A stretch of 64,000 bases of DNA. Origin: an uncultured Candidatus Saccharibacteria bacterium. Its GTDB lineage: Bacteria; Patescibacteriota; CPR2_A; CAYFQT01. Shown in pieces: positions 2 to 43,907 of the stretch (position 1 is its first letter; every line of letters begins with the position of its first letter). Where the stretch lies: positions 30,893 to 94,892 of the forward strand of contig CAYFQT010000038.1 in the NCBI GenBank assembly GCA_964345445.1, in the 5' to 3' direction. The notes below the pieces were generated by a model. That model was not told the DNA's origin. It did not search any database and saw only the letters and a program-made list of their open reading frames with translations. The position numbers and the translations under genes were made by a program.

Positions 2-667
2 TCAGCTTTTAATTTTCGGGATGTAATGGATCAGCAAAAAATTCTTTTAGTTAATTTATCGCGAGGGAAAATTGGCGATGTAAACAGTGACCTTCTAGGA
101 ATGATTTTGGTATCTAAATTGCAAATGGCCGCCATGGGTCGAGCTGATATTCCAGAAAGTGAAAGAAAAGATTTTTATTTATATGTTGATGAGTTTCAAA
201 ATTTTGCTACTGATTCTTTTGCTACAATACTTTCCCAGGCTCGAAAATATCATCTTAATTTAATTACTGCTAATCAATATATAGCTCAGCTTGAAGAACA
301 AGTTCGTGATGCGGTTTTTGGCAATATTGGAACATTAATTTGTTTTAGGGTGGGTGCTCAAGATAGCGAATTTTTGGCTCGAGAATTTCATCCAGTATTT
401 TCAGAGAGTGATTTAGTAAATATAGATAGATTTAATACCTATATTAAACTTTTGATTGATGGCACAGCTTCCAGACCTTTTTCTATGCAAACTGTTAAAA
501 CAGAAGGTGAGGAGAACAAAGATGTTACTTTGTCTATTAAAGAGCTTTCTCGCCTGAAATATGGAAAAGATAAAAAAGTTGTAGATAAAGAAATTGGAGA
601 AAGAGTAGATATAGAAAGTGTAAGTGAATTTCCAATATCATCAGGGGAGGAGATGAGGAGAGAATAA
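2..667 (+). CDS. C-terminal part (5' end outside window) of a TraD/TraG/VirD4-like P-loop ATPase; paralog of the C-terminus of the 39630..42482 protein
   Basis: Frame is open from position 2. LYVDEFQNF Walker-B-like motif and ANQYIAQ...VFGNIGTL block align to the C-terminal 200 aa of the 950-aa minus-strand ATPase. Lys/Glu-rich tail. Confidence 0.6.
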   Translation, partial: SAFNFRDVMDQQKILLVNLSRGKIGDVNSDLLGMILVSKLQMAAMGRADIPESERKDFYLYVDEFQNFATDSFATILSQARKYHLNLITANQYIAQLEEQVRDAVFGNIGTLICFRVGAQDSEFLAREFHPVFSESDLVNIDRFNTYIKLLIDGTASRPFSMQTVKTEGEENKDVTLSIKELSRLKYGKDKKVVDKEIGERVDIESVSEFPISSGEEMRRE

Positions 668-5209: not shown

Positions 5210-5341
5210 TTGCAATAAATCCCAATTTTTCATATAATTAAACTAATTACATTAGAGAATATAATAAAAATTATTTAATTACGCTGGAGCTGTGCGAAAG
5301 CACTAATTAAATAAATATTAATACTTAATTTTATCAGAAAG

Positions 5342-5962
5342 ATGGAAGAGCAAAAGATTAAACTTTTAAAATCAGATATTTTAGCCTCTTTATTAATAGG
5401 AATTCTGGCTTTTTTATTTTCATTAATCATAATCAAAAATTTAGCAATTAAAATTCCTTATTATCAGAGTGCTTTATTTTTTATCCCTCTTTGTTTAGTG
5501 GGAATTTATATTGGCTATTTACTTGGTCGAATAAAAAAAGTGTTTTTTCAATTTACTAAATTTGGTGAAACTGGTGGATTAAATTTGTTGGTAGATTTTG
5601 GTGTTTTAAATTTACTTATTTTATTTACAGGAATTAGTACAGGAATCTTGTACTCGGTTTTTAAAGCCATTTCCTTTACAGTGGCAGTTATCAATAGTTA
5701 TGTTTGGAATAAATTCTGGGTTTTTAAAAAAACAGGTTCTTCTAAAGAGACGAGTAAGGAGTTTGTTAATTTCATTATTGTAAGTTTAATTGGATTAGGA
5801 ATTAATGTATTATTAGCCAGCTTAATAGTTTATTTTTCTTCCCTGGGTAATCCACAACCACAATGGGAGAAGATTTGGGCAAATATAGGTGCTGCTTTTG
5901 GTTCTATTACAGCTATGATTTGGAATTTTATTGGATATAAATTTTTAGTATTCAAGAAATAA
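5342..5962 (+). CDS. GtrA-family polyisoprenoid-linked glycan translocation membrane protein, with 2-TM N-terminal extension
   Basis: QFTKFGETGGLNLLVDFGVLNLL matches the GtrA signature; multiple TM helices. Confidence 0.7.
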   Translation: MEEQKIKLLKSDILASLLIGILAFLFSLIIIKNLAIKIPYYQSALFFIPLCLVGIYIGYLLGRIKKVFFQFTKFGETGGLNLLVDFGVLNLLILFTGISTGILYSVFKAISFTVAVINSYVWNKFWVFKKTGSSKETSKEFVNFIIVSLIGLGINVLLASLIVYFSSLGNPQPQWEKIWANIGAAFGSITAMIWNFIGYKFLVFKK

Positions 5963-5997
5963 TTGCATTTAAATAAATATAAATAGGAGAATAGAAT

Positions 5998-6786
5998 ATG
6001 AAAGAAAGGCCTTATCTAACAATTATCATTCCTACTTATAATGAAGCTAAGCGTATTGGAAAGACTTTGGATGCTGTAGCTGATTTTTTAAAGAAACAAA
6101 AATATTCTGCTGAAATTTTGGTAATGGATGGAGGAAGCAAAGATGACACAAAAGGAGTTGTTAAAGTAAAAGAGGAATTGTTTGATGATATCCAATTTAT
6201 AGATGTTAGCAAAAACACTGAGGGCAGAAGCGGAAAAGGTTATGCAGTGAGATGTGGAATGATGAAAGCAAGGGGCCGATATGTTATGTTTACTGATGCT
6301 GACAATTCTACTCCCATTTCTGAAGTTGATAAACTTTTGCCTTATATGAAAGAATATGCAGTGGTAATTGGTTCTAGATATTTAAAAAGAGAAACTGTTA
6401 AAATAAAACAGCCTTGGTATAGGATTCTTTTGTCTCGAGCAGGTAATCTTTTGATTAAATTTTTAGTATTACCGGGCATTTTTGATACTCAATGCGGATT
6501 TAAAATATTTCGGCAAATAACAGCAAAAAAAATATTTTGCTTTCAATATATTGACGGATGGGGTTTTGACATGGAGATTTTGACTATAGCCTATAATTTG
6601 GGATATAAAATTAAAGAGGTATCAGTTTCCTGGTATGATGCCGGTGGCTCCAAAGTTCATTTATTTAAAGATAGTCTTAAAACATTAGCTGATTTATTAA
6701 AAATTAAATGGAATTTATTAACTGGGAAATATAGTAAGAAAAAATTACTTGATTGTCTTTTAGAAAAAGGATTGATTAAGAAATAA
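5998..6786 (+). CDS. GT2 polyprenyl-phosphate glycosyltransferase (GtrB/DPM1-like)
   Basis: IIIPTYNEAKRI N-terminus, TDADNS DXD motif. Confidence 0.85.
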   Translation: MKERPYLTIIIPTYNEAKRIGKTLDAVADFLKKQKYSAEILVMDGGSKDDTKGVVKVKEELFDDIQFIDVSKNTEGRSGKGYAVRCGMMKARGRYVMFTDADNSTPISEVDKLLPYMKEYAVVIGSRYLKRETVKIKQPWYRILLSRAGNLLIKFLVLPGIFDTQCGFKIFRQITAKKIFCFQYIDGWGFDMEILTIAYNLGYKIKEVSVSWYDAGGSKVHLFKDSLKTLADLLKIKWNLLTGKYSKKKLLDCLLEKGLIKK

Positions 6787-6874
6787 TTAAATAACTGAAA
6801 AACTTAATAAATAAAGAACCAAATAACAAAAAAACAGAAAAATAGAATTGTTATTAAGTTGGAAGTAAAAGTAT

Positions 6875-8650
6875 ATGGACAAATTATCATCTTTTATCAA
6901 AAAACACAAAGTCAAATTGATAGTTGGTTTATTATTAACTGTTATGTTTTTTACAATGCTTGCATCTTCTGTGGGAGATTCAGGAATTGTTGATGAAATA
7001 GCTCATATTCCTGCTGGTTATTCTTATTTAACTACCGGCGATTTTCGAATTAATCCTGAGCATCCTCCTTTGATTAAATCTCTGTCAGCTGTTCCTTTAT
7101 TATTTTTAGGATTGAAATTTCCTTATAAATATTGGCAAGCTTATGGTAATAATCAATGGGAGCTGGGTTGGAAATTTATTTACCATTTTGGTAACAATCC
7201 TGATCGTATCTTTTTTTGGGCTAGAATCCCTATAATTTTATTAGCTTTATTATTAGGTTATTTTGTTTTCAGGTGGGCAAGAGAGCTTTATGGAGCAAAA
7301 GCAGGAATTTTTGCTTTATTTTTATATTCATTTTCTCCTAACATCATTGCCCATTCTCGATTTGTAACTACTGATTTAGGAATGACTATTTTTTATGTAT
7401 TAGCTGTTTATTTTTTTGGTAGATTTTTAAAAAATCCTACTAAGAGAAATGTTGTTATTGCCGGGGTGATTTTTGGATTGGCCCAGTTGGCAAAATTTTC
7501 AGCAGTACTCCTAGGCCCGATATTTATTATCCTTGTGATATTAAAGGCTTATTCTGAGAGTAAATTTATAAAGCAAGAAGATAAATCTTGGATTTCCAAT
7601 TTACTAGCTTATTTGTTTAATAAAAAAGTTTTTAAGAATGGATTAAAATATTTAGCAAAGCTAATTTTAATTTTTACAATTGCTCTTGCCTTAATTCTTT
7701 TGGTTTATTGGGTTCATACATTCCGTATGCCTTTGGCTGTTTGTGAAGATTTAATCAAAGAGTCAATCCCAACTAATCAGAATATTCAAAATGGTCTTAT
7801 TACAATTTCTCACTTTTCTAGACCTTTGGCTCAATATCTTTTAGGATTAGCAATGGTTTTTGCTCATGTAGGAGGAGGTCATACTGCTTTTCTTTTAGGA
7901 GGTTTTTCCAGAGTAGGTTGGTGGTATTATTTCCCCGTTGCTTTTCTTGTAAAAACACCTATTCCTACTTTAATATTTTTAGTTTTAGCTATTGCCTTAA
8001 TTAGAAAATTTAAATGGAAGTTTTCGGAATGGCTTTTAATTGTCCCTGTTATTTTCTATTTTTTAATTAGTATTAAAGGTTCTTTAAATATTGGAGTAAG
8101 ACATCTTCTTCCTATTTATCCATTTATTTTTATTTATGTAAGTAAGTTAGCGCCTGGCATTCAACAATTAGCCCTTAACTCTGTTAAGTTTTCAAAAAAA
8201 TGGCTTTTTAATTCCTTTTATTTATTTTTTGCTATTTTGTGCGGCTGGTATTTATGGACTTCATTATCTATATACCCTTATTATGTTGCTTATTTTAATG
8301 AAGCAATAGGCCCTAAAAATGGTTATAAATATTTAGTTGATTCATCTTTAGATTGGGGTCAGGATTTAAAAAGATTAACTAAATATGTAGAAGAAAATAA
8401 TATTAAAAATATAAAAGTGGATTATTTCGGTGGGGGTGTGCCTCAATATTATATTCCAGATAGCATAGAGTGGCATTCTCAATATGGCAAGACTTCCGGC
8501 CCGATTGCAATTTCGGCTACTTTCTTACAAATGAGCAAGTTCTATGCTCCCTTAGAAAACCAACCTTCTTACCAGTGGATAGAGAAATATGAACCGGAGA
8601 CGGTAATTGGTCATTCGATTTTTGTGTATAATATACCTGAGGAGAAGTAA
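6875..8650 (+). CDS. GT-C family 39/83 (PMT/ArnT-like) integral membrane glycosyltransferase
   Basis: 591 aa, more than 10 TM helices, DEIAHIPAGYSY...EHPPLIK motif in the first periplasmic loop. Confidence 0.8.
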   Translation: MDKLSSFIKKHKVKLIVGLLLTVMFFTMLASSVGDSGIVDEIAHIPAGYSYLTTGDFRINPEHPPLIKSLSAVPLLFLGLKFPYKYWQAYGNNQWELGWKFIYHFGNNPDRIFFWARIPIILLALLLGYFVFRWARELYGAKAGIFALFLYSFSPNIIAHSRFVTTDLGMTIFYVLAVYFFGRFLKNPTKRNVVIAGVIFGLAQLAKFSAVLLGPIFIILVILKAYSESKFIKQEDKSWISNLLAYLFNKKVFKNGLKYLAKLILIFTIALALILLVYWVHTFRMPLAVCEDLIKESIPTNQNIQNGLITISHFSRPLAQYLLGLAMVFAHVGGGHTAFLLGGFSRVGWWYYFPVAFLVKTPIPTLIFLVLAIALIRKFKWKFSEWLLIVPVIFYFLISIKGSLNIGVRHLLPIYPFIFIYVSKLAPGIQQLALNSVKFSKKWLFNSFYLFFAILCGWYLWTSLSIYPYYVAYFNEAIGPKNGYKYLVDSSLDWGQDLKRLTKYVEENNIKNIKVDYFGGGVPQYYIPDSIEWHSQYGKTSGPIAISATFLQMSKFYAPLENQPSYQWIEKYEPETVIGHSIFVYNIPEEK

Positions 8651-8850
8651 AATAATAAATCCGAAATCCTAAATACTAAACAATTTCAAAATTCTGATGT
8701 TCCAATATTCTAAACGTTTGTTTTAGTCATTTGTATTTATATATTAGGATTTGTTTAGGATTTAGAAATTAGATATTAGGATTTATTCTTAATTAGATAT
8801 TGATTAGGCATTAGGTCAATTAGGAATTAGAAATTAACTATTACAATAAT
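8651..8850. repeat. degenerate TTAGGATT / ATTAGG repeat-rich intergenic region
   Basis: At least seven ATTAGG(A/C)(A/T)TT units within 200 nt, plus an inverted AAATCCTAA at the 5' edge. Confidence 0.5.
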
Positions 8851-8862
8851 TTGAGGTTTAAA

Positions 8863-9594
8863 ATGGATGATATCTATCTTTCAGTGATTATTCCAGCCTA
8901 CAATGAAGAGGAACGTATTGGACAAACTTTGGATCTAGTTTGTAAATATTTAAAAAAACAAAATTTTCCTTCAGAAATTATTGTAGTAAATGATGGAAGT
9001 AAAGATAATACTTTAGATGTAATAAAGGGGAAACGATGTTTAGCTTATTTTCAAATCATTTCTTATTCTATAAACCGAGGCAAAGGTTATGCAATAAGGT
9101 CGGGAGTTAAAAAAGCTCAAGGTAAATATATTCTATTTGCTGATGCGGATAATTCTACTCCTTTTGAGCAAATTAAGAAATTACAAGCGAAGATTAGAAA
9201 TGATTGTGATATTGTTATAGGCTCTCGTTATATATCTGGTGGAGAGATCAAAAAAAAACAAAATGTAATAAGAAGATTTATTAGTCGAGGAGGAAATTTA
9301 TTATTTTGGTTAATTTTAGGACTTAGATTTAAAGACACCCGCTGTGGTTTTAAATTGTTTAAAAGTAAGATAGCTAAACATCTTTTTTCTTTGCAGAAAT
9401 TAGAAAGATGGGGATTTGATACAGAAATTTTGGTTTTAGCTTGTAAATACAAATATAGGGTAGCAGAAGTCCCGGTGATTTGGTATGATAAAACCAGAAG
9501 TCAAATTAATCCTTTCAGTGATTCTTTAAGATCCTTTTGTGAAATATTTCAGATTAAGTGGAATATGATAAGAGGGAAATACAATAAAAATTAA
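8863..9594 (+). CDS. second GT2 polyprenyl-phosphate glycosyltransferase (paralog of 5998..6786)
   Basis: VIIPAYNEEERI, ADADNS. The ORF track starts at 8851, but the Met at 8863 (MDDIYLS) aligns with the paralog. Confidence 0.85.
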   Translation: MDDIYLSVIIPAYNEEERIGQTLDLVCKYLKKQNFPSEIIVVNDGSKDNTLDVIKGKRCLAYFQIISYSINRGKGYAIRSGVKKAQGKYILFADADNSTPFEQIKKLQAKIRNDCDIVIGSRYISGGEIKKKQNVIRRFISRGGNLLFWLILGLRFKDTRCGFKLFKSKIAKHLFSLQKLERWGFDTEILVLACKYKYRVAEVPVIWYDKTRSQINPFSDSLRSFCEIFQIKWNMIRGKYNKN

Positions 9595-14012: not shown

Positions 14013-16010
14013 ATGATGCAAAATAGTCATTCTAATCATAAAAAACATAATATGAAAAGTGGGCAAAATCACCATACTCATATGATTAAAGAATACAAAA
14101 AGAGATTTTGGATATCTTTAGTATTAACCATTCCAATTCTTATTCTTTCACCTGCAATTCAAAATTTTATTGGTATAAGAAATATACTTGAATTCACTGG
14201 AGATATTTATCTTCTATTTACATTAGCCTCTTTTGTCTTTTTCTATGGAGGTTACCTCTTTTTTAAAGGGATATTAAAAGAATTAAAATCTGCCAAACCA
14301 GGCATGATGACTCTTATTGCTTTAGCAATTACTGTTGCCTATGTATATAGTAGCGCTGTCATTTTTGGCTTAGAAGGTAAAATCTTCTATTGGGAATTAG
14401 TAACTTTAATTGATGTAATGTTACTTGGCCACTGGATTGAAATGAAATCTATCATGGGTGCATCCCTTGCGCTTGAAGAACTGGCTAAACTGATGCCTTC
14501 TGAAGCGCATTTAATAATGCCTGATGGGAGTATTCAGGATGTACTATTAGATAAACTTAAGCCTAACGATAAAGTTTTAATAAAACCTGGTGAAAAAATT
14601 CCTGCAGATGGAAATATCATAGAAGGCGAAACTTCAGTCAACGAATCAATGCTTACAGGTGAATCAAAGCCAGTAGCAAAAAAAGTAGATGGAAGTGTCA
14701 TAGGAGGGTCAATCAATGGTGAAGGCTCAATTACGATAGAAATTCAAAAAACTGGTAAGGATTCTTTTCTTTCCCAAATCATACAATTAGTAAAAGATGC
14801 CCAAGAAAGCAAATCAAAAACGCAGGACTTAGCTAATCGAGCAGCTCTTTATTTGACAATTATTGCTATCGTCGGTGGAGTTTTAACTCTGTTTGTTTGG
14901 TTTGCCATTCTAAATAAAGACTTTGCTTTTGCTTTAGAAAGAACAGTTACCGTCATGGTGATTACATGTCCTCATGCTCTTGGGCTTGCTGTTCCTCTTG
15001 TTGTAGCTGTTTCCACTGTTTTATCCGCAAAAAATGGTTTATTAATAAAAAACCGTGTAGCTTTTGAAAGTGCCAGAAATATTCAAGCGATCATTTTTGA
15101 TAAGACTGGTACTTTAACTGAAGGTAAGTTTGGAGTAACGGATACTATGATTTTAGATAGTAACCTAAACGAAAAAGAACTATTACAATATGCAGCTTCT
15201 ATAGAGTCGAATTCAGAACATCCGATTGCCAAAGGAATCACTTCATCAACAAAAGAAGTTTCCCCTGTTAAAAAATTTGAAGCAATACCTGGCAAGGGAG
15301 CAGAGGGAGAGGTTAATGGTAAAGATATAAAAGTTGTAAGCCCAGGCTATCTTAGAGAAAATAAAATAGCAGTTGATAACCATAAGATCGAAAGGCTTAC
15401 TTCACAGGGGAAAACTGTTGTATTTATTTTAATAGATGGAAAGCTCAGTGGAGCCATTGCTTTAGCAGATATTATTAGACCTGAATCGAAAAAGGCAATT
15501 TCTCAACTTAAAAATATGGGTATTAAATGTATGATGCTGACAGGAGACAATAAGCAGGTAGCAGAATGGGTTGCTAAAGATCTTGATCTTGACGATCATT
15601 TTGCAGAAGTATTACCTCACGAAAAATCTGAGAAAGTGAAAAAAGTTCAAAAAAGAGGTCTTGTTGTAGCTATGACTGGTGATGGTGTAAATGATGCTCC
15701 AGCATTAGCTCAAGCTGATGTTGGTATTGCTATTGGCGCAGGAACAGATGTAGCTGTTGAGACGGCTGACATTATATTGGTGAAAAGCAACCCTCTGGAT
15801 GCAGTTGCAATTATTAGTCTTGCTAAGGCTACATACAAAAAGATGATTCAAAACCTAGTGTGGGCTACTGGTTACAATGCTATTGCCATTCCAATAGCCG
15901 CAGGAGCCCTTTTTAGTTATGGGATTCTTCTTAGCCCAGCAATAGGGGCGGCGTTGATGTCGCTTAGCACTGTAATTGTTGCAATCAATGCTAGATTTTT
16001 AAAAGCTTAA
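14013..16010 (+). CDS. copB: P1B-type heavy-metal (copper) transporting ATPase, CopB-like
   Basis: His-rich N-terminus, CPH motif in TM6, DKTGTLT, GDGVNDAPAL. Confidence 0.85.
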   Translation: MMQNSHSNHKKHNMKSGQNHHTHMIKEYKKRFWISLVLTIPILILSPAIQNFIGIRNILEFTGDIYLLFTLASFVFFYGGYLFFKGILKELKSAKPGMMTLIALAITVAYVYSSAVIFGLEGKIFYWELVTLIDVMLLGHWIEMKSIMGASLALEELAKLMPSEAHLIMPDGSIQDVLLDKLKPNDKVLIKPGEKIPADGNIIEGETSVNESMLTGESKPVAKKVDGSVIGGSINGEGSITIEIQKTGKDSFLSQIIQLVKDAQESKSKTQDLANRAALYLTIIAIVGGVLTLFVWFAILNKDFAFALERTVTVMVITCPHALGLAVPLVVAVSTVLSAKNGLLIKNRVAFESARNIQAIIFDKTGTLTEGKFGVTDTMILDSNLNEKELLQYAASIESNSEHPIAKGITSSTKEVSPVKKFEAIPGKGAEGEVNGKDIKVVSPGYLRENKIAVDNHKIERLTSQGKTVVFILIDGKLSGAIALADIIRPESKKAISQLKNMGIKCMMLTGDNKQVAEWVAKDLDLDDHFAEVLPHEKSEKVKKVQKRGLVVAMTGDGVNDAPALAQADVGIAIGAGTDVAVETADIILVKSNPLDAVAIISLAKATYKKMIQNLVWATGYNAIAIPIAAGALFSYGILLSPAIGAALMSLSTVIVAINARFLKA

Positions 16011-18533: not shown

Positions 18534-18800
18534 ATTCTCCTTCTTAGACACCCACTTTTAAACTGGGGATGAATACGCAAAAAAGAAGTTTTCTGCTTTA
18601 GGGGATTTCGCAAAAAAGAAATATTAGATAACCCGGGTTTTAATTTGGGTAAGCTTCATTTATTAGTTATTAATTTAGTATTATAAAAGTTTTTATTTTG
18701 TAGTATAATTAAATAAGTTACATTAAACAATATAATAAGAATTATTTGATTACACTGGAGTGAAACAAAAGCTCTAATGTAAAGAAGGAGAATAATTATA

Positions 18801-38288: not shown

Positions 38289-38325
38289 AAAATAATTTGT
38301 ATTTTAAAATTTTTATATTGATAGT

Positions 38326-38414
38326 ATAGTTTTGCGAAGTAATGAAGAAGTAATGAAGGAGTACATAAGTATTATTAATTTTGAATGTTCTTTTAATTTA
38401 CTTCGCAAAACTAT
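38326..38414. repeat. 17-bp perfect inverted repeat (ATAGTTTTGCGAAGTAA / TTACTTCGCAAAACTAT) around a 55-nt loop
   Basis: The loop itself contains the direct repeat GAAGTAATGAAG x2. Confidence 0.7.
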
Positions 38415-38448
38415 CATTGTCCGACATATTTTCAAATGTAAAATAACA

Positions 38449-38478
38449 CCAGCAGAACCCCTTCCCTGCTGGTTTTTT
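38449..38478 (+). terminator. Rho-independent terminator closing the dcw operon
   Basis: CCAGCAG-AACCCCTTCC-CTGCTGG followed by TTTTTT. Confidence 0.6.
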
Positions 38479-38741
38479 ACACTAATTAAATATATTTTAT
38501 CTTAGAATTACTCTGATAAAATAATAAGACTTTTAGTAATAGAGTTTGCCAAAATTGGTGACTTTTTTAAAAAAAATTAAATTCTATCCCCTATTATGAT
38601 GAAACTTAGTATTTTTTTACTCCAGATCTCTATATTGCTGTTATATTGCTGTAGTGAGGGATTTTAATATAGTTCAGCAATAGCAATAATGTAGATTATT
38701 GAAGTGAAGGTGTTTGATTTTTAAAAAAATAATAAAAGATT

Positions 38742-39188
38742 TTAGTAGTTCACTTCCCTATCTTTCATAATCTTTCCGAAAGTCTCTTTTATTTCTTCAA
38801 AATGTTTTTCTTTTTCTTCCTTAGAATCATTTACACTATCTTTATAAAAATATACCAAAGCCAGACTTTCAGGATTGGAAGTTTCTCCTCCAAAATCTTC
38901 TGCTTTGCCGATTTCTAAAATATGATTTCCAAATTCTATCATATCTGCTTCGTGGTCAGATAGTTCTGTTATTTCATCTTGTTCAAATAATTCCATTTTT
39001 TCTATAATTTCTTCTGATTGCCAATCTACCTCTTGATTTTTTTCATAAGCCAAAGCGGAGATGAATTTCTTCAGTTCCTCAACTTCTCCTTTAATAATAA
39101 TTCTATTAAATTGTTCATCAATTTCTGGTTCTATTTCTATTTCTTCAGTTGGGTCATATTCAGAAGTAGATCCTAAATCCCCAAGCAT
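38742..39188 (-). CDS. highly acidic hypothetical protein (possible DNA-mimic-like)
   Basis: 148 aa, about 30% D/E, downstream (same strand) of the coupling-protein-like ATPase. Confidence 0.45.
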   Translation of the reverse strand: MLGDLGSTSEYDPTEEIEIEPEIDEQFNRIIIKGEVEELKKFISALAYEKNQEVDWQSEEIIEKMELFEQDEITELSDHEADMIEFGNHILEIGKAEDFGGETSNPESLALVYFYKDSVNDSKEEKEKHFEEIKETFGKIMKDREVNY

Positions 39189-39278
39189 TTTTTCCTCTCT
39201 TATTGAAGCCTAATTACATAGACTTCTCCTTTTTCGATAAAATACTTAAAGCATTTTATCAAGTAAAATGATTTAAAA

Positions 39279-39314
39279 AGCAGCTTCAATACATAAAAAG
39301 CTGCTCATTTTTTG
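39279..39314. terminator. bidirectional hairpin terminator
   Basis: AGCAGCTT-CAATACATAAA-AAGCTGCT with T-runs on both strands. Confidence 0.45.
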
Positions 39315-39629
39315 AGTTTTTTGTATAATTTTAATTTTTTTAGAAATTTTATTTTTGTTTTCATTTTTGTATAACGCAGATTAACACTGATATTATAATG
39401 TAGATTATTTTGACGCTGATTTACGCGGATATATATTATAATCGCTGAGTGCCGATTAATCGGCAGGCCCGACTGCAACGCTATGCTTGCATTAGCGGGC
39501 AGGCTACATCTTCAACATCTTGAACAAGTGAGCGGAGCGAACAATATAGCAATTTGAACATTTTATAATTATTTGTGTTTAATTTGTGCATTAAATTCGT
39601 GTTTAATTTGAGAAAGATTCCTGCTTTTT

Positions 39630-42482
39630 TCAACCAGAGTCTGATCTTCCTTTGGACGAAATTTTTACCTCTTCTCCTTCTTTCAACTCATGTGTTTTAC
39701 TTTTTTCTTTTTGTTCTTTTTCTTCAGTTACTGAGTTTTGGGTCTTTTCTTTTGAAGATGAAAGAGTATCAGAAGGTTCTGTGGGTTTATGTGATATCTT
39801 AATTTCTTCTTTTTCTTTTATTGGCCTATGATGTATTATAGAAGGCTTTGCTTCTTTTTTTTCTTCAGCTATTTCTTCTTGAGGTTTTTCTTTTACTTTT
39901 ATACCTTCTTCTTGAGTAACTTCTTCTAAAATATCTTCTGCAGTTATTCTTACCTCTGGGTATTTTTCTACTCTAATAGTTTCTCTGGGTCTTTTTTCTT
40001 TAAATTTCTGAGGTTGAGTTTCTTCTTCGTTTTCCTCTTCTGTTTCTTCTATCCCTGCCCAACGAGCAATTTTTTCTTCTACTACATTTTTTGGGGTGCT
40101 ATATCTTTCTTGTGATAAAAGAATAACCTTTTCTTTATTTTTATTTTCCCCTTTGAGTGGAGGTAAAGTTTGAGCAGAAAAAGCAGGAGAAGTTACCCCA
40201 TTAATAGCAAGTTTTAAATAAATATTATATTTATCCAAATTTACTATATCAGTTTCATCAAAGACTGGGGCTACTTCTTTGGCTAAGAATGTTGCATCTG
40301 CTGCGCCTACTCTAAAGGAAATTAATGTTCCAATATTGCCAAAAACAGCATCACGAACTACTTCAGGCATTTGGGCTATATATTGGTTAGCTACTATTAA
40401 ATTTAATCCATATTTTCTTGCTTCAGATAATATTTTGGCAAATGATTCAGTAGCAAAGTTTTGAAACTCATCAACATATAGATAAAAATCTTTTCTCTGT
40501 TTTTCTGGGATGTCTACTCGACTCATAGCTGCTAACTGGAGTTTAGTAATCATCATTGCTCCTAAAAGAGAAGAATTGTCTTCCCCTATAGTTCCTTGAG
40601 CTAATTTGATTAATAATATTTTTCCTGAATCAATAACTTCTCGCATATCGATAGTGCTTTTAGGCTGCCCTATAATGTTTCTTATTGTTGCCGAAGATAT
40701 AAACTGCCCTACTTTGTTTTGAATTGGAGAAATTGCTTCTGTTACTAAACGAGGATTTGATTGATATCCAGGAAACTCTTGAGTCCAAAATCTTTTTACT
40801 TCTATATCGGTAATTTTCTTAACCACTTTTTTTCTAAATTTTTTATCAGTAAGCATTCGATTTACTGATAACATTGTAGAATTAGGATAATCTAACAAAG
40901 CTAATAAAGTATTTCTTAAAATATGTTCTAATCTAGGACCCCAGGTGAAAGCCCAGATTTTTTGAAAAATGGAAATTAATCCTGAACATATCAACCCTTT
41001 ATAGTCAGGGTCCACAGCTTCTAGTGGATTGAAAGCAATAGGATATTCTCGATCAGAAGGATCAAAGATAATTACATCATTTATTCTTTCAGAGGGAATG
41101 AAATTTAATATATCGTCAATTAGGTCTCCATGAGGGTCCACTACTCCTACTCCTTTTCCTGCTCGGATATCAGAAATAGCCATATTTCTCAACATATTAG
41201 TCTTGCCCATCCCAGTTTTACCAATTAAATACATATGTTTTCTTCTGTCATCAGTTTTTATTCCAAATTTTTGTCTTATATGTCTAAAGTTTGTCTCGGC
41301 AAATAAAGTTAGTTCGCTAGATGGAATAACTTTTTCTTCAATTGGTAAGTTATCAGGAGGTTCTCCTTTTTTAGATTTTGTCCAAGCGATTGTGGGAGTT
41401 TCTACTCCTATAGTTGGAAGATGAAATATTGAAGCTAATTCTTCAGTATTTAAAACAAAGCCAGAGTCGGAAAACAAACGTGCTTTATAGTCTTGAAGAA
41501 AATTTTCACCTTCATAAGTTTTGTCTGATTTGAAACCATTTAGGTTAGCGGTTGAAAATTGTTTAAATGTTCCAATAAGAGATTGAAGATGAGGATTTAC
41601 AATTTGTCCTTTCTTGCAAACATATGCTGCTCTTATTTTTGTATCAAAACCAAGTTTGGATACTTTTTCCTCAATAGCCGAAAGCTGAGTCTCTTGAGCA
41701 GATGAGAGTTGAGGAGGTCCGGAGGCACTTTCTTCAGTGGTTCCTGGTGTAATCAAAGAAGTAATTTGTCCTAAAACTTTAGCTAAAAATCCAAAAGCTG
41801 TTCCTATGCCAAAAGCTTCTGGGTTTCCACCAGCTTTTACTATGTCTATATAAGAAAGACCTTTTTTTTGCCATTCTTCCCCTGAAGGACGAACGAGTAT
41901 TTGAATCCAAATTTGTTCATTATTTTCTTTTAATTTTCCTAAAACCCCAGTGATTCCTGCCAGAGGATCTACTTCGAAATCAGGAAAGGTTTTAATAGGA
42001 AAAAAATCTAATTTGTTTAAGAGAAGTTGAGTGCCCATAATTTGTTTTTCTTTTAAATCAATCTCAGTGTAATCAGGTACTTTTTCAATTTCTACTTCAG
42101 GATATTGGGCATAAATTTGTCCTTCCACAAAATCTCTTAGATGTTCTGGAACCCAAATAAAAAATCCAATTTTTCCATTTGTTGAAGCAATTTCAAAACT
42201 AATGTGTTCTTGTAATGTTCCTTCCAGAAATCTTTTTTTAGTAGGTTTATAAATTCCATGTAGAGAAGCAAACATCATTTCTGCTGCAGTAGGTCCTTTT
42301 TCATTTTCTTTTGGAATATACAAAGATAAAAGAACGTATTTTTGTTGAGAAACCCAGTTTAATTTTCTACGGCTTAAAAAAGACAAAAATAAAAGTAGAG
42401 GTACTAGAAACCATATACCCCAAAATAAAAATTTACCAGTTTGTGGTAATATTTGGCTTAAAATTTTAAATAAGCCTTCCAT
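39630..42482 (-). CDS. membrane-anchored P-loop NTPase of the type IV coupling protein (TraD/TraG/VirD4; FtsK-HerA superfamily) type, with long Glu/Lys-rich C-terminal tail
   Basis: N-terminal TM (FLFWGIWFLVPLLLFLSFL), Walker A GKTGMGKT, Walker B YLYVDEFQNF about 240 aa later, ANQYIAQ block, 220-aa low-complexity EK-rich tail. Confidence 0.7.
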   Translation of the reverse strand: MEGLFKILSQILPQTGKFLFWGIWFLVPLLLFLSFLSRRKLNWVSQQKYVLLSLYIPKENEKGPTAAEMMFASLHGIYKPTKKRFLEGTLQEHISFEIASTNGKIGFFIWVPEHLRDFVEGQIYAQYPEVEIEKVPDYTEIDLKEKQIMGTQLLLNKLDFFPIKTFPDFEVDPLAGITGVLGKLKENNEQIWIQILVRPSGEEWQKKGLSYIDIVKAGGNPEAFGIGTAFGFLAKVLGQITSLITPGTTEESASGPPQLSSAQETQLSAIEEKVSKLGFDTKIRAAYVCKKGQIVNPHLQSLIGTFKQFSTANLNGFKSDKTYEGENFLQDYKARLFSDSGFVLNTEELASIFHLPTIGVETPTIAWTKSKKGEPPDNLPIEEKVIPSSELTLFAETNFRHIRQKFGIKTDDRRKHMYLIGKTGMGKTNMLRNMAISDIRAGKGVGVVDPHGDLIDDILNFIPSERINDVIIFDPSDREYPIAFNPLEAVDPDYKGLICSGLISIFQKIWAFTWGPRLEHILRNTLLALLDYPNSTMLSVNRMLTDKKFRKKVVKKITDIEVKRFWTQEFPGYQSNPRLVTEAISPIQNKVGQFISSATIRNIIGQPKSTIDMREVIDSGKILLIKLAQGTIGEDNSSLLGAMMITKLQLAAMSRVDIPEKQRKDFYLYVDEFQNFATESFAKILSEARKYGLNLIVANQYIAQMPEVVRDAVFGNIGTLISFRVGAADATFLAKEVAPVFDETDIVNLDKYNIYLKLAINGVTSPAFSAQTLPPLKGENKNKEKVILLSQERYSTPKNVVEEKIARWAGIEETEEENEEETQPQKFKEKRPRETIRVEKYPEVRITAEDILEEVTQEEGIKVKEKPQEEIAEEKKEAKPSIIHHRPIKEKEEIKISHKPTEPSDTLSSSKEKTQNSVTEEKEQKEKSKTHELKEGEEVKISSKGRSDSG

Positions 42483-42535
42483 TTATTCACCCCTTTAAAT
42501 TATATATTCCCCTATTTTTATTATATCATTTTTCT

Positions 42536-43681
42536 CTATTTTTTATTTATCTTTTTTAGCCCATAAGTACATTTTTTTATTCTTGTAAATTGAGGTTTTT
42601 CTTGAAGATTTAAAACTATAGTATTAGGATTTACTTGACGTACTTCTAACACTTTTTTAATAATTTCATCTTTGCTAAGCGGTTTTCCTTCCTTTTCCAA
42701 TATTTCTTTAATAACATTTGCTACTGTTCCTGGTTTAAGCCCCCATTCAGAAAGTCCATAAATTCCTCTTCCTACTAAAACAAATTTTTTATCTTTTACT
42801 AATTCATTATGCACTGCTTGACTGTTTACTGGTTTTTTATCAAAATTTGCTTCGGTAATCATTTGAGCGACTGTTCTAAAATGAACAGGTTTTTTATATT
42901 TTCTTAAAACATATAAAGCTTTGTCTCTTATATTTTTAGGATTAATATTTGACCAATATTTAAGTCCCCATCTGCCATCTTCAGTTTTCATAATATTTCC
43001 ACTTATTTCTAAACAAGATAAGAGAAAGTTATCAGATAACATAAGTTGATTTTGCTTATAAAATTCTTGTATTTTGATTTTTTGTAGAATATAGTCGGAT
43101 TCTTGAACTTTTTGAGCTTTTTGTAGTATTTTCTCAAATGATAAAATTGTAGGTATAGTCAATCTTTGAGGATTTTTTAATAGACTCCAAGATTTTTTTA
43201 ATTTTTCCTGTTTTATTTTGATAAATTTATCTTCTGTTTCTAGGATGAATTTTAAAGCATTAATATTTTCATTACTTTGTTTTATTGAATTTAGGGTTTT
43301 TTGAATAATTTTTTCTTCAGTTAATACTCCCCCACTCTCTTTTATTATTTCTATAAGTAGATTAATTGCTGGGTTTAATATCTTTTTTGAAGAAGGTTGA
43401 TTTATTTTTATAAGACTCATTTTTTCTATTTGACGAATTCGTTCTCGAGATACTGAATATTCTTTTCCAATTTGTTCTAATGTCTGTTTCGCCTCGCCTT
43501 GTAGAGCAAAACGCTTAATTATTACTTCTTTTTCTCTAGGTTTAAGATTTTCAAGAACAGAAGATACTACCTTAGCTGGTTCAAATTCTTGTAAGGCATT
43601 TTTATGATTTATAGATATTATTTTGTCTAAAATAGAAGATTGAGTTTGTTGTTTTTCTTCATTATTCATTTTTTTCTCCAT
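42536..43681 (-). CDS. DNA-binding protein with sigma70 region-4-like HTH and C-terminal HARE-HTH-like winged helix
   Basis: LKPREKEVIIKRFAL...TLEQIGKEYSVSRERIRQIEKMSLIKI matches sigma region 4.2; C-terminal VLVGRGIYGLSEW is the HARE-HTH hallmark. Confidence 0.6.
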   Translation of the reverse strand: MEKKMNNEEKQQTQSSILDKIISINHKNALQEFEPAKVVSSVLENLKPREKEVIIKRFALQGEAKQTLEQIGKEYSVSRERIRQIEKMSLIKINQPSSKKILNPAINLLIEIIKESGGVLTEEKIIQKTLNSIKQSNENINALKFILETEDKFIKIKQEKLKKSWSLLKNPQRLTIPTILSFEKILQKAQKVQESDYILQKIKIQEFYKQNQLMLSDNFLLSCLEISGNIMKTEDGRWGLKYWSNINPKNIRDKALYVLRKYKKPVHFRTVAQMITEANFDKKPVNSQAVHNELVKDKKFVLVGRGIYGLSEWGLKPGTVANVIKEILEKEGKPLSKDEIIKKVLEVRQVNPNTIVLNLQEKPQFTRIKKCTYGLKKINKK

Positions 43682-43698
43682 ATCTGAATATAGTTATA

Positions 43699-43795
43699 TT
43701 TTCTAATGTAATTACTTAATTAGTGCTTCCACTTTGTTACAGCGTAATTAAGTAATTTTCTATTATATTTTCTAATGTAATTACTTAATTATAGC
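43699..43795 (-). promoter_or_regulatory. duplicated promoter/operator region: 26-nt direct repeat x2 plus a third copy of the 57-nt conserved promoter-leader module
   Basis: TATTTTCTAATGTAATTACTTAATTA at 43699-43724 and 43768-43793. The reverse complement of 43742-43795 matches the modules upstream of gtrA and gdh. Confidence 0.55.
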
Positions 43796-43907
43796 ACAGA
43801 ATGAGGAAAATGTCAAGTCTTTTATATTTAATATATAGTTAATTATTGTTATAAAAAAATACTATAGATTATTAAAAATCATAGCTGTTTTGCAGAATTG
43901 ACTTATT

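Follow-up and report, generated by a model that had tools for sequence, protein, structure and literature searches.

A Patescibacteria-wide coupling-protein-like ATPase and its sigma-region-4/HARE-HTH neighbour in a Saccharibacteria genome

Introduction

What is the function of a membrane-anchored ATPase that resembles the coupling proteins of conjugation systems, when it is encoded among housekeeping genes beside a putative DNA-binding protein? This question is raised by a locus of an uncultured Candidatus Saccharibacteria bacterium, which lies in a stretch of 64,000 nucleotides (hereafter, the window; contig CAYFQT010000038.1, positions 30,893 to 94,892). The original prediction, made from this sequence, described three minus-strand genes encoding an acidic protein (38742-39188), the ATPase (39630-42482) and a helix-turn-helix (HTH) protein (42536-43681). 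We found all three of them at these positions.

We report here that the locus holds one copy, that of paralogue A, of a module of two genes that is a core feature of the Patescibacteria. The identity of its products is secure: the ATPase is paralogue A of a Patescibacteria-wide, domesticated coupling ATPase of the Gram-positive type, and the HTH protein, which combines a sigma-70 region 4 with HARE-HTH domains, is its obligate neighbour. The proposal that the locus is not a described system was overstated, as a survey of orphan type IV coupling proteins (T4CPs; PMC12102498), a Pfam family (DUF8128, PF26449) and transposon sequencing (Tn-seq) data (PMC10633639) already exist. What is new here is the VirB4-type fold of DUF8128, the phylum-wide pairing of the ATPase with the HTH protein, the paralogue-specific tail motif, the recurrent fission of the ATPase gene and the kinship with ATPases that are encoded beside relaxases in Bacillus plasmids and phages.

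Results

The ATPase Combines a Coupling-Protein Motor with a VirB4-Type N-Terminal Domain

The ATPase (Table 1) is a DUF8128/T4CP-like protein of the Patescibacteria, in which the DUF8128 domain is followed by TrwB_AAD_bind. Pfam detected TrwB_AAD_bind at aa 410-709 (43.8 bits, for a cut-off of 20.5) together with TraG-D_C, and NCBIfam yielded only partial matches of the TraD and CedD types. The VirB4 models CagE_TrbE_VirB and AAA_10 had no match on the protein in Pfam or NCBIfam, and FtsK_SpoIIIE had none in Pfam. The only matches of a sequence search of the PDB were the coupling proteins TrwB and DotL. The ATPase is coupling-protein-like, as originally proposed, and not a plain FtsK or VirB4; it is located outside any conjugative element. 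The Walker motifs had been read correctly as GKTGMGKT (aa 421-428) and YLYVDEFQNF (aa 667-676); their residues are invariant across 56 homologues, and the catalytic motifs are intact. The single N-terminal hydrophobic helix (aa 17-37) that anchors the protein in the membrane, and the domain of about 350 aa ahead of the NTPase, were confirmed as well.

In the AlphaFold (AF2) model of aa 1-811, which was generated with 56 homologues and is confident (pLDDT 88.5), the N-terminal helix is long and leads into an N-domain of the alpha/beta type; the motor contains a helical insertion (aa 492-604). The N-domain has the fold of the VirB4 N-terminal domain. The protein falls within the FtsK-HerA superfamily, and its structural similarity to FtsK is lower. 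The precomputed Pfam assignments place DUF8128 (PF26449) in all 120 listed homologues, nearly every one of which also carries PF10412, and in the 75%-identical protein P0001.

The Glu/Lys-rich tail is present, with a length of about 145 aa (aa 806-950) instead of the 220 aa initially proposed. A motif, which reads ELKEGEEVKI in the present protein, occurs in the last 25 residues of 86 of the 120 homologues, as compared with 0-7 for shuffled sequences and 2 for other parts of the tail. Both the long tail and its terminal motif are confined to paralogue A, and paralogue B (see below) lacks them. The C-terminal tail of TraD docks TraM, and the tail of the ATPase with its terminal motif may be its counterpart.

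The kinship with the T4CPs VirD4, TrwB and TraD extends over the TrwB-type motor, the Walker A and B motifs and the TraG-D_C region; the helical insertion of the model may correspond to the all-alpha domain of TrwB. Unlike these T4CPs, the ATPase has no linked relaxase, origin-of-transfer (oriT) proteins or mating-pair genes; it is chromosomal and near-universal, and it occurs in two paralogous forms; its transmembrane helix is single, whereas canonical T4CPs have two (and the Bacillus plasmid relative none); and its partner is a sigma-region-4/HARE-HTH protein instead of a relaxase. VirB4/TrwK has the same overall layout, in which a VirB4-type N-terminal domain stands between the membrane helix and the C-terminal motor. 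VirB4, which we considered together with the VirB3-VirB4 fusions, is the signature ATPase of the type IV secretion systems (T4SSs). The present ATPase differs from it in matching neither CagE_TrbE_VirB nor AAA_10 and in lying outside a T4SS cluster, and a separate true VirB4 exists in Patescibacteria.

The HTH-ATPase Pair Is Conserved across the Patescibacteria

The homologues of the ATPase form more than 6,400 clusters; among the matches listed, those with source names are assigned to Patescibacteria. Using one genome per species, we collected at least 594 loci (ATPase identity 44-54%), the titles of which refer to Berkelbacteria, Saccharibacteria, Gracilibacteria, Peregrinibacteria, Moranbacteria, Nomurabacteria and Buchananbacteria, with a few bins titled as other taxa. 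The gene-neighbourhood counts rest on 80 Patescibacteria loci (individual loci are designated below by L numbers). An HTH homologue lies immediately upstream of the ATPase gene, on the same strand, in 69 of these 80 loci, and a convergent FtsQ gene lies downstream in at least 26 of them. Because of both features, we regard the HTH-ATPase pair as an old conserved unit with a conserved chromosomal place. The dedicated DNA-binding partner proposed for the ATPase in the window is therefore kept across the classes of Patescibacteria.

The ATPase gene has undergone repeated and independent fission. In L038 (4946-8086), L046 (7920-10718), L056 (7941-10997) and L068 (4265-7474), DUF8128 and the motor are encoded by separate genes with a true stop codon and a new start codon, and the breaks, read as DNA, interrupt the linker that joins the GEPPxNLP motif to the TNFR motif. 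DUF8128 and the motor were also called as separate genes in L086 (9131-12264), as well as in a complete Kerfeldbacteria genome, where the HTH gene still lies upstream. A search with the N-domain alone retrieved 2,599 cluster representatives, many of which are only 410-520 aa long and have this domain at their C-terminal end. In that it can be a separate gene, the DUF8128 domain resembles the stand-alone TrsD (PMC12102498).

The HTH Protein Combines a Primary-Sigma Region 4 with HARE-HTH Winged Helices

The HTH gene probably starts at M5 (43669), judging from a GGAG Shine-Dalgarno sequence and from a 100% identical database protein of 377 aa. Pfam recognised Sigma70_r4 (aa 42-90, 50 bits) and HARE-HTH (36 bits, two stretches), which agrees with the domains originally assigned to the protein. 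Region 4 (aa 38-100) can be aligned over its full length with that of primary sigma factors; it retains RERIRQIE, its recognition helix SRERIRQIE being as in these factors. The two HARE-HTH winged helices occupy approximately aa 250-375, and the first one (aa 253-313) passes the NCBIfam model of the RNA polymerase (RNAP) delta subunit (TIGR04567; 43.7 bits for a cut-off of 42). NCBIfam thus describes the protein as a primary-sigma region 4 plus an RNAP-delta-type HARE-HTH. Sigma70_r4 was the sole sigma model matched, and sigma region 2 had no match in Pfam or NCBIfam.

The protein is therefore akin both to the RNAP delta subunit (RpoE of Firmicutes), through the fit of its HARE-HTH to the delta model, and to sigma-70 region 4, through a recognition helix nearly identical to that of primary sigma factors. 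It departs from them by the absence of the acidic delta-type C-terminal tail, the protein being basic, and of sigma regions 1-3, as well as by its two winged helices, its middle domain and its fixed position beside a translocase gene. A second odd protein built on sigma region 4 occurs in the same lineage: in the closest relative, L081, a protein of 477 aa (5442-6875) comprising Sigma70_r4 and the C-terminal domain of the RNAP alpha subunit is encoded just upstream of rtcB.

A Second ATPase Paralogue Has Its Own Small Partner

The window begins within the gene of a second ATPase, paralogue B, which is followed by the gene of a small protein (Table 1). The full-length paralogue B of L001 is 39% identical to paralogue A, over both domains. 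Orthologues of the small protein directly follow paralogue B in L001, L004, L006, L007 and L009. The genes stand in the order B, small protein, HTH and A in four of these five loci; in the fifth, L001, the HTH gene was not found. The small protein has no confident family match and gave weak hints of a beta-barrel.

The published Tn-seq data of Southlakia epibionticum (PMC10633639) cover the orthologous genes. SEML1_0294, the HTH orthologue with Sigma70_r4 and HARE-HTH, is essential, and SEML1_0293, the adjacent paralogue A, is non-essential (normalised reads 5817 -> 1372). SEML1_0142, an ATPase with a TraM-recognition domain, is essential (ES/ES/ES; Table S1 of PMC10633639). It is probably paralogue B, as suggested by its annotated P-loop region (aa 381-800) and by the unassigned N-terminal sequence that precedes it. 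The survey (PMC12102498) calls the T4CP homologue of Southlakia not essential, while the Tn-seq study lists SEML1_0142, a second T4CP-like gene, as essential.

Relatives outside the Patescibacteria Are Encoded beside Relaxases

Full-length homologues of the ATPase (aa 48-777, 23-27% identity) occur in Bacillus phages (SPO1 gp27.4 and phage G gp156) and in plasmids, of which 323 from Bacillus, Streptomyces, Clostridium, haloarchaea and Sulfolobus carry one. The homologue of a 27.5-kb Bacillus subtilis plasmid (E 2e-55; about 25% identity over a length that covers the N-domain) heads a conjugation operon; it is directly followed by the gene of a Replic_Relax protein and later by that of a true VirB4 (387 bits on AAA_10). 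Similarly, gp27.4 of SPO1 (L088) is followed by the Replic_Relax nickase gp27.3, so that a pair of coupling protein and relaxase occurs in a lytic phage. Replic_Relax is the family of the RelLS20 relaxase (PMC5313138). From these nickase neighbours in the plasmid and in SPO1, we conclude that the family is one of coupling-type ATPases, which normally work with a nickase. The closest T4CPs that we can name are the DUF87-annotated ATPases located beside RelLS20-type relaxases in conjugative plasmids of Bacillus and in SPO1-like phages.

The Acidic Protein Lies outside the Conserved Module

The acidic protein has the composition originally described (29% Asp/Glu, pI 4.2), and it matches no Pfam family. 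Among 5.8 billion proteins it has four homologues, all in the nearest relatives, and tblastn gave no match to it in the 80 Patescibacteria loci. A small acidic open reading frame (ORF) downstream of the ATPase gene was found in none of 73 related loci. In the window, a spacer of 441 bp with a terminator-like hairpin (39272-39306) separates its gene from that of the ATPase, and a comparable stem and T-run can be seen, as judged by eye, in the aligned intergenic sequence of L081. The HTH-ATPase-acidic triad is therefore not conserved as a unit: the acidic protein is an orphan restricted to one lineage, and a terminator-like hairpin precedes its gene. This gene is probably a separate transcription unit, outside the conserved module, and we found nothing in support of its proposed role as a DNA mimic.

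The spacer between the acidic and ATPase genes also contains a GC-rich stretch of about 120 nt (39440-39560, minus strand), the minimum-energy fold of which has three hairpins in a cloverleaf-like arrangement. As a candidate non-coding RNA it received no support: it matched neither Rfam nor a tRNA, its z-score was only -1.7, it is not repeated in the window and it is absent in L081.

One Promoter with a Leader Module Precedes the HTH Gene

The tandemly duplicated promoter initially proposed for the locus proved to be a single one, as the site at 43816-43788 is the only perfect promoter of this kind within the window; it is kept upstream of the HTH orthologue in L081. The duplicated part is a segment of the leader, namely a 29-nt direct repeat (43694-43722 and 43763-43791, with a spacing of 69 nt), in which sequence inspection gave no support for a second promoter. 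L081 lacks the first copy, hence the duplication. The leader also contains three 13-nt AT-rich arms (43710-22, 43745-57 and 43779-91), which are inverted (hairpin z-score -2.3) and may form alternative hairpins or serve as an operator. As a structured RNA the hairpin is a weak candidate, its covariation across four sequences being poor.

A module of about 90 nt, made of promoter and leader, does recur upstream of gdh and of the gtrA cassette, as had been noticed. It is located at 43680-43816 (minus strand), 5210-5330 (plus strand; gtrA-like) and about 18700-18800 (plus strand; gdh), and at 8590-8745 in L081. Its shared content is the -10 TATAAT, TAATTACATTAGA, and TTAATTACGCTG..AAGCACTAATTAA. 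Three unrelated genes (HTH, gtrA-like cassette and gdh) thus carry the same promoter and leader module, which may be the operator of a regulon or a leader hairpin.

The Locus Stands among Housekeeping Genes

The G+C content of the window is about 30%. The window has 56 ORFs of at least 110 aa. All those that we scanned against Pfam, 53 in number, belong to housekeeping genes or are unassigned; MurC, MurB and FtsQ are named from synteny. Among these genes are dnaX, dnaB, the gtrA-glycosyltransferase cassette, recR, cysS, gdh and recO; the full dcw cluster from mraZ to ftsQ and a DUF1290 gene precede the locus, and rtcB, the archease gene and others follow it. The housekeeping context of the original prediction is therefore correct, the locus being flanked by the dcw cluster and by rtcB-archease.

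At about 38290-38740, the larger ORFs change from all plus to all minus strand, and the GC skew changes its sign (about 38.3 kb). This junction could be the replication terminus or merely a convergent junction; no dif-like site was found.

Table 1. Features of the locus and of the paralogue-B region, in window coordinates.
Feature	Position	Strand	Remarks
Paralogue B, C-terminal 221 aa, cut by window start	2..667	+	phmmer 234 bits; TraG-D_C match
Small partner of paralogue B, 200 aa	1142..1744	+	Conserved
Acidic orphan protein, 148 aa	38742..39188	-	Lineage-specific
Terminator-like hairpin 3' of ATPase gene	39272..39306	-	10-bp stem, then U-run
Paralogue A, Patescibacteria DUF8128/T4CP-like ATPase, 950 aa	39630..42482	-	Pfam, model
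Disordered Glu/Lys-rich tail, aa 806-950	39633..40067	-	Composition
Conserved tail motif ELKEGEEVKI	39660-39689	-	Near end of Glu/Lys tail
NTPase motor, aa 401-805, and TraG-D_C region	40068..41282	-	Helical insertion aa 492-604
Walker A; Walker B	41199-41222; 40455-40484	-	Within NTPase motor
DUF8128 domain, aa 47-400	41283..42344	-	Fold of VirB4 N-terminal domain
N-terminal membrane anchor, aa 17-37, then RRK	42372..42434	-	Sequence; AF2 helix aa 2-46
HTH protein, 377 aa, pI 9.8	42536..43669	-	Sigma-70 region 4, middle domain, two HARE-HTH
5' leader module	43680..43793	-	Common to gtrA-like and gdh genes
Sigma-70-type promoter, extended -10	43788..43816	-	TTGACA, 17 nt, TGcTATAAT; 12/12 consensus

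Discussion

Starting from the conserved HTH-ATPase pair and from the homology of the ATPase to relaxase-linked ATPases, we propose, tentatively and with somewhat less than even confidence, that the ATPase is an ATP-driven membrane translocase that would receive DNA or a nucleoprotein via the HTH protein and work with a dispersed T4SS. The enzyme is presumably a hexameric P-loop translocase of the VirD4/VirB4 clade. It descends from the coupling proteins of Gram-positive-type conjugation systems, relatives that are encoded beside a relaxase, whereas in the Patescibacteria its gene is now chromosomal and duplicated, and the relaxase has been lost. The basic HTH protein would bind DNA, possibly at -35-like TTGACA sites, and it may be held by the ATPase tail, with its docking-type motif, or by the all-alpha domain, much as coupling proteins of the TraD type provide a docking site for relaxosome proteins. 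The ATPase would spend ATP to move the nucleic-acid or nucleoprotein substrate at the membrane. This substrate would most likely be handed to a T4SS encoded elsewhere, which in the cultured Saccharibacteria is essential and has no linked coupling protein. A role in DNA uptake or export is possible.

Several observations weigh against this proposal. The window contains no T4SS genes: the 53 ORFs scanned against Pfam include no VirB, as originally noticed, and no relaxase or integrase. Neither a Replic_Relax-type nickase or relaxase nor a VirB4 is encoded within 8 kb of the ATPase gene in the 80 Patescibacteria loci, and the lack of a relaxase leaves no known way to start DNA transfer. In the 2025 survey, only 148 of 5,713 T4CP genes are near virB4 (PMC12102498). 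The pair is not indissociable either, as the HTH and ATPase genes are unlinked in a Peregrinibacteria locus, L085, which has two HTH paralogues (8001-9047 and 14554-15639) and the DUF8128 ATPase 6 kb off on the other strand. Finally, the HTH gene is essential in Southlakia and the adjacent ATPase gene is not, so the HTH protein must have some role in addition to its service to paralogue A, either with the probable paralogue B, which is essential, or perhaps as a transcription factor.

Two alternatives deserve most attention, both of which we consider rather unlikely, to a similar degree. According to one of them, the two paralogues and their nucleic-acid-binding partners make up a separate membrane machine, with neither a T4SS nor a VirB-type channel. 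Its task might be the import or export of DNA or RNA, or the handling of the chromosome where it meets the membrane. The dispersal of the genes from virB4 throughout the phylum would fit such a machine, and so would the conserved chromosomal position next to the dcw cluster, seen in at least 26 loci, the membrane anchor and VirB4-like N-domain that the ATPase possesses itself, and the small partner specific to each paralogue; the exaptation of orphan T4CPs was indeed raised as a possibility by the authors of the survey (PMC12102498). However, one transmembrane helix per subunit makes a poor channel, and the closest relatives outside the Candidate Phyla Radiation act inside conjugation operons. 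The prevalence of the two kinds of ATPases does not separate this machine from a T4SS-dependent translocase: the survey found the VirD4-like T4CPs in 2,918 of 3,035 Patescibacteria genomes and VirB4 in 2,417 (PMC12102498), and these 96% and 80% are uninformative because they are what two copies versus one predict at a completeness of about 80%. The other alternative sees in the HTH protein chiefly an essential RNAP-associated factor, the adjacency of which would stem from co-expression with the ATPase, or from regulation of the latter, instead of a role as physical adaptor. It accounts for the full alignment of region 4 with primary sigma factors and the preserved RERIRQIE, for the score of the first HARE-HTH above the RNAP-delta cut-off, for an essential HTH gene next to a dispensable ATPase gene, and for a promoter/leader module common to the unrelated gtrA and gdh genes. 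Against it, even very divergent classes share the gene order, which also persists in front of split ATPases, and this is the usual mark of physically interacting products; the protein lacks sigma region 2 and the acidic delta tail; and the tail motif is confined to the HTH-linked paralogue.

Far less probable is an FtsK/SpoIIIE-like pump that would replace FtsK in chromosome segregation. The ATPase and FtsK belong to the same superfamily, are membrane-anchored, possess a long low-complexity linker or tail, and are associated with division genes, the present ATPase gene lying beside ftsQ at the sign change of the GC skew. Nevertheless, the ATPase is devoid of the 4TM, alpha and gamma domains and of any FtsK_SpoIIIE match in Pfam, and a true FtsK coexists with it in Saccharibacteria. 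In Southlakia this is SEML1_0096, a complete (4TM, alpha, motor, gamma) and essential FtsK (PMC10633639). We rejected the replacement of FtsK in view of this essential protein, the lower structural similarity and the lack of a dif-like site. We give slightly less credit still to a mobile element, an anti-phage defence system (MADS, Dnd or Mza-like) or a three-protein machine with an acidic DNA mimic. The NTPase matches mad8 (2.7e-18) of PADLOC as well as HerA, sigma region 4 matches MzaA, and there is a full-length match to PHROG 5156. The defence matches, however, cover generic domains only, for which reason we discarded this explanation, and the genes are near-universal, flagged as core, partly essential and fixed in housekeeping synteny with no integrase or partner defence genes; as for the three-protein machine, the acidic gene is narrowly distributed and lies beyond a terminator-like hairpin.

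Returning to the translocase that works with a dispersed T4SS, we note that in Southlakia, where the T4SS is essential, neither a coupling protein nor a relaxase is recognisable for it (PMC10633639). A more speculative extension, which we regard as unlikely but worth stating, is that the Patescibacteria have converted a conjugative coupling protein into a relaxase-free system of two ATPases, A with its sigma-like winged-helix protein and B with its small beta-rich protein. The two would pull or load nucleic acid, using either the essential T4SS or a separate channel that they form themselves, and could thereby, for instance, acquire nucleic acids of the host cell.

The candidates described here are testable leads and not a demonstrated new machine, and parts of them were already in the literature and in Pfam. 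The occurrence of a VirB4-type N-domain on a VirD4-type motor, also in the relatives from Bacillus plasmids and phages, bears on the kinship of the two signature ATPases of the T4SSs. As for the organisms, the cultured Saccharibacteria need their T4SS for growth on the host, and the coupling protein, relaxase and substrate of this T4SS are not known. The locus and its paralogue are obvious candidates, as phylum-wide coupling-type motors, each with a nucleic-acid-binding partner. If the two-ATPase system proves true, it would provide the motor and the substrate receptor that have so far been missing from the epibiont lifestyle.

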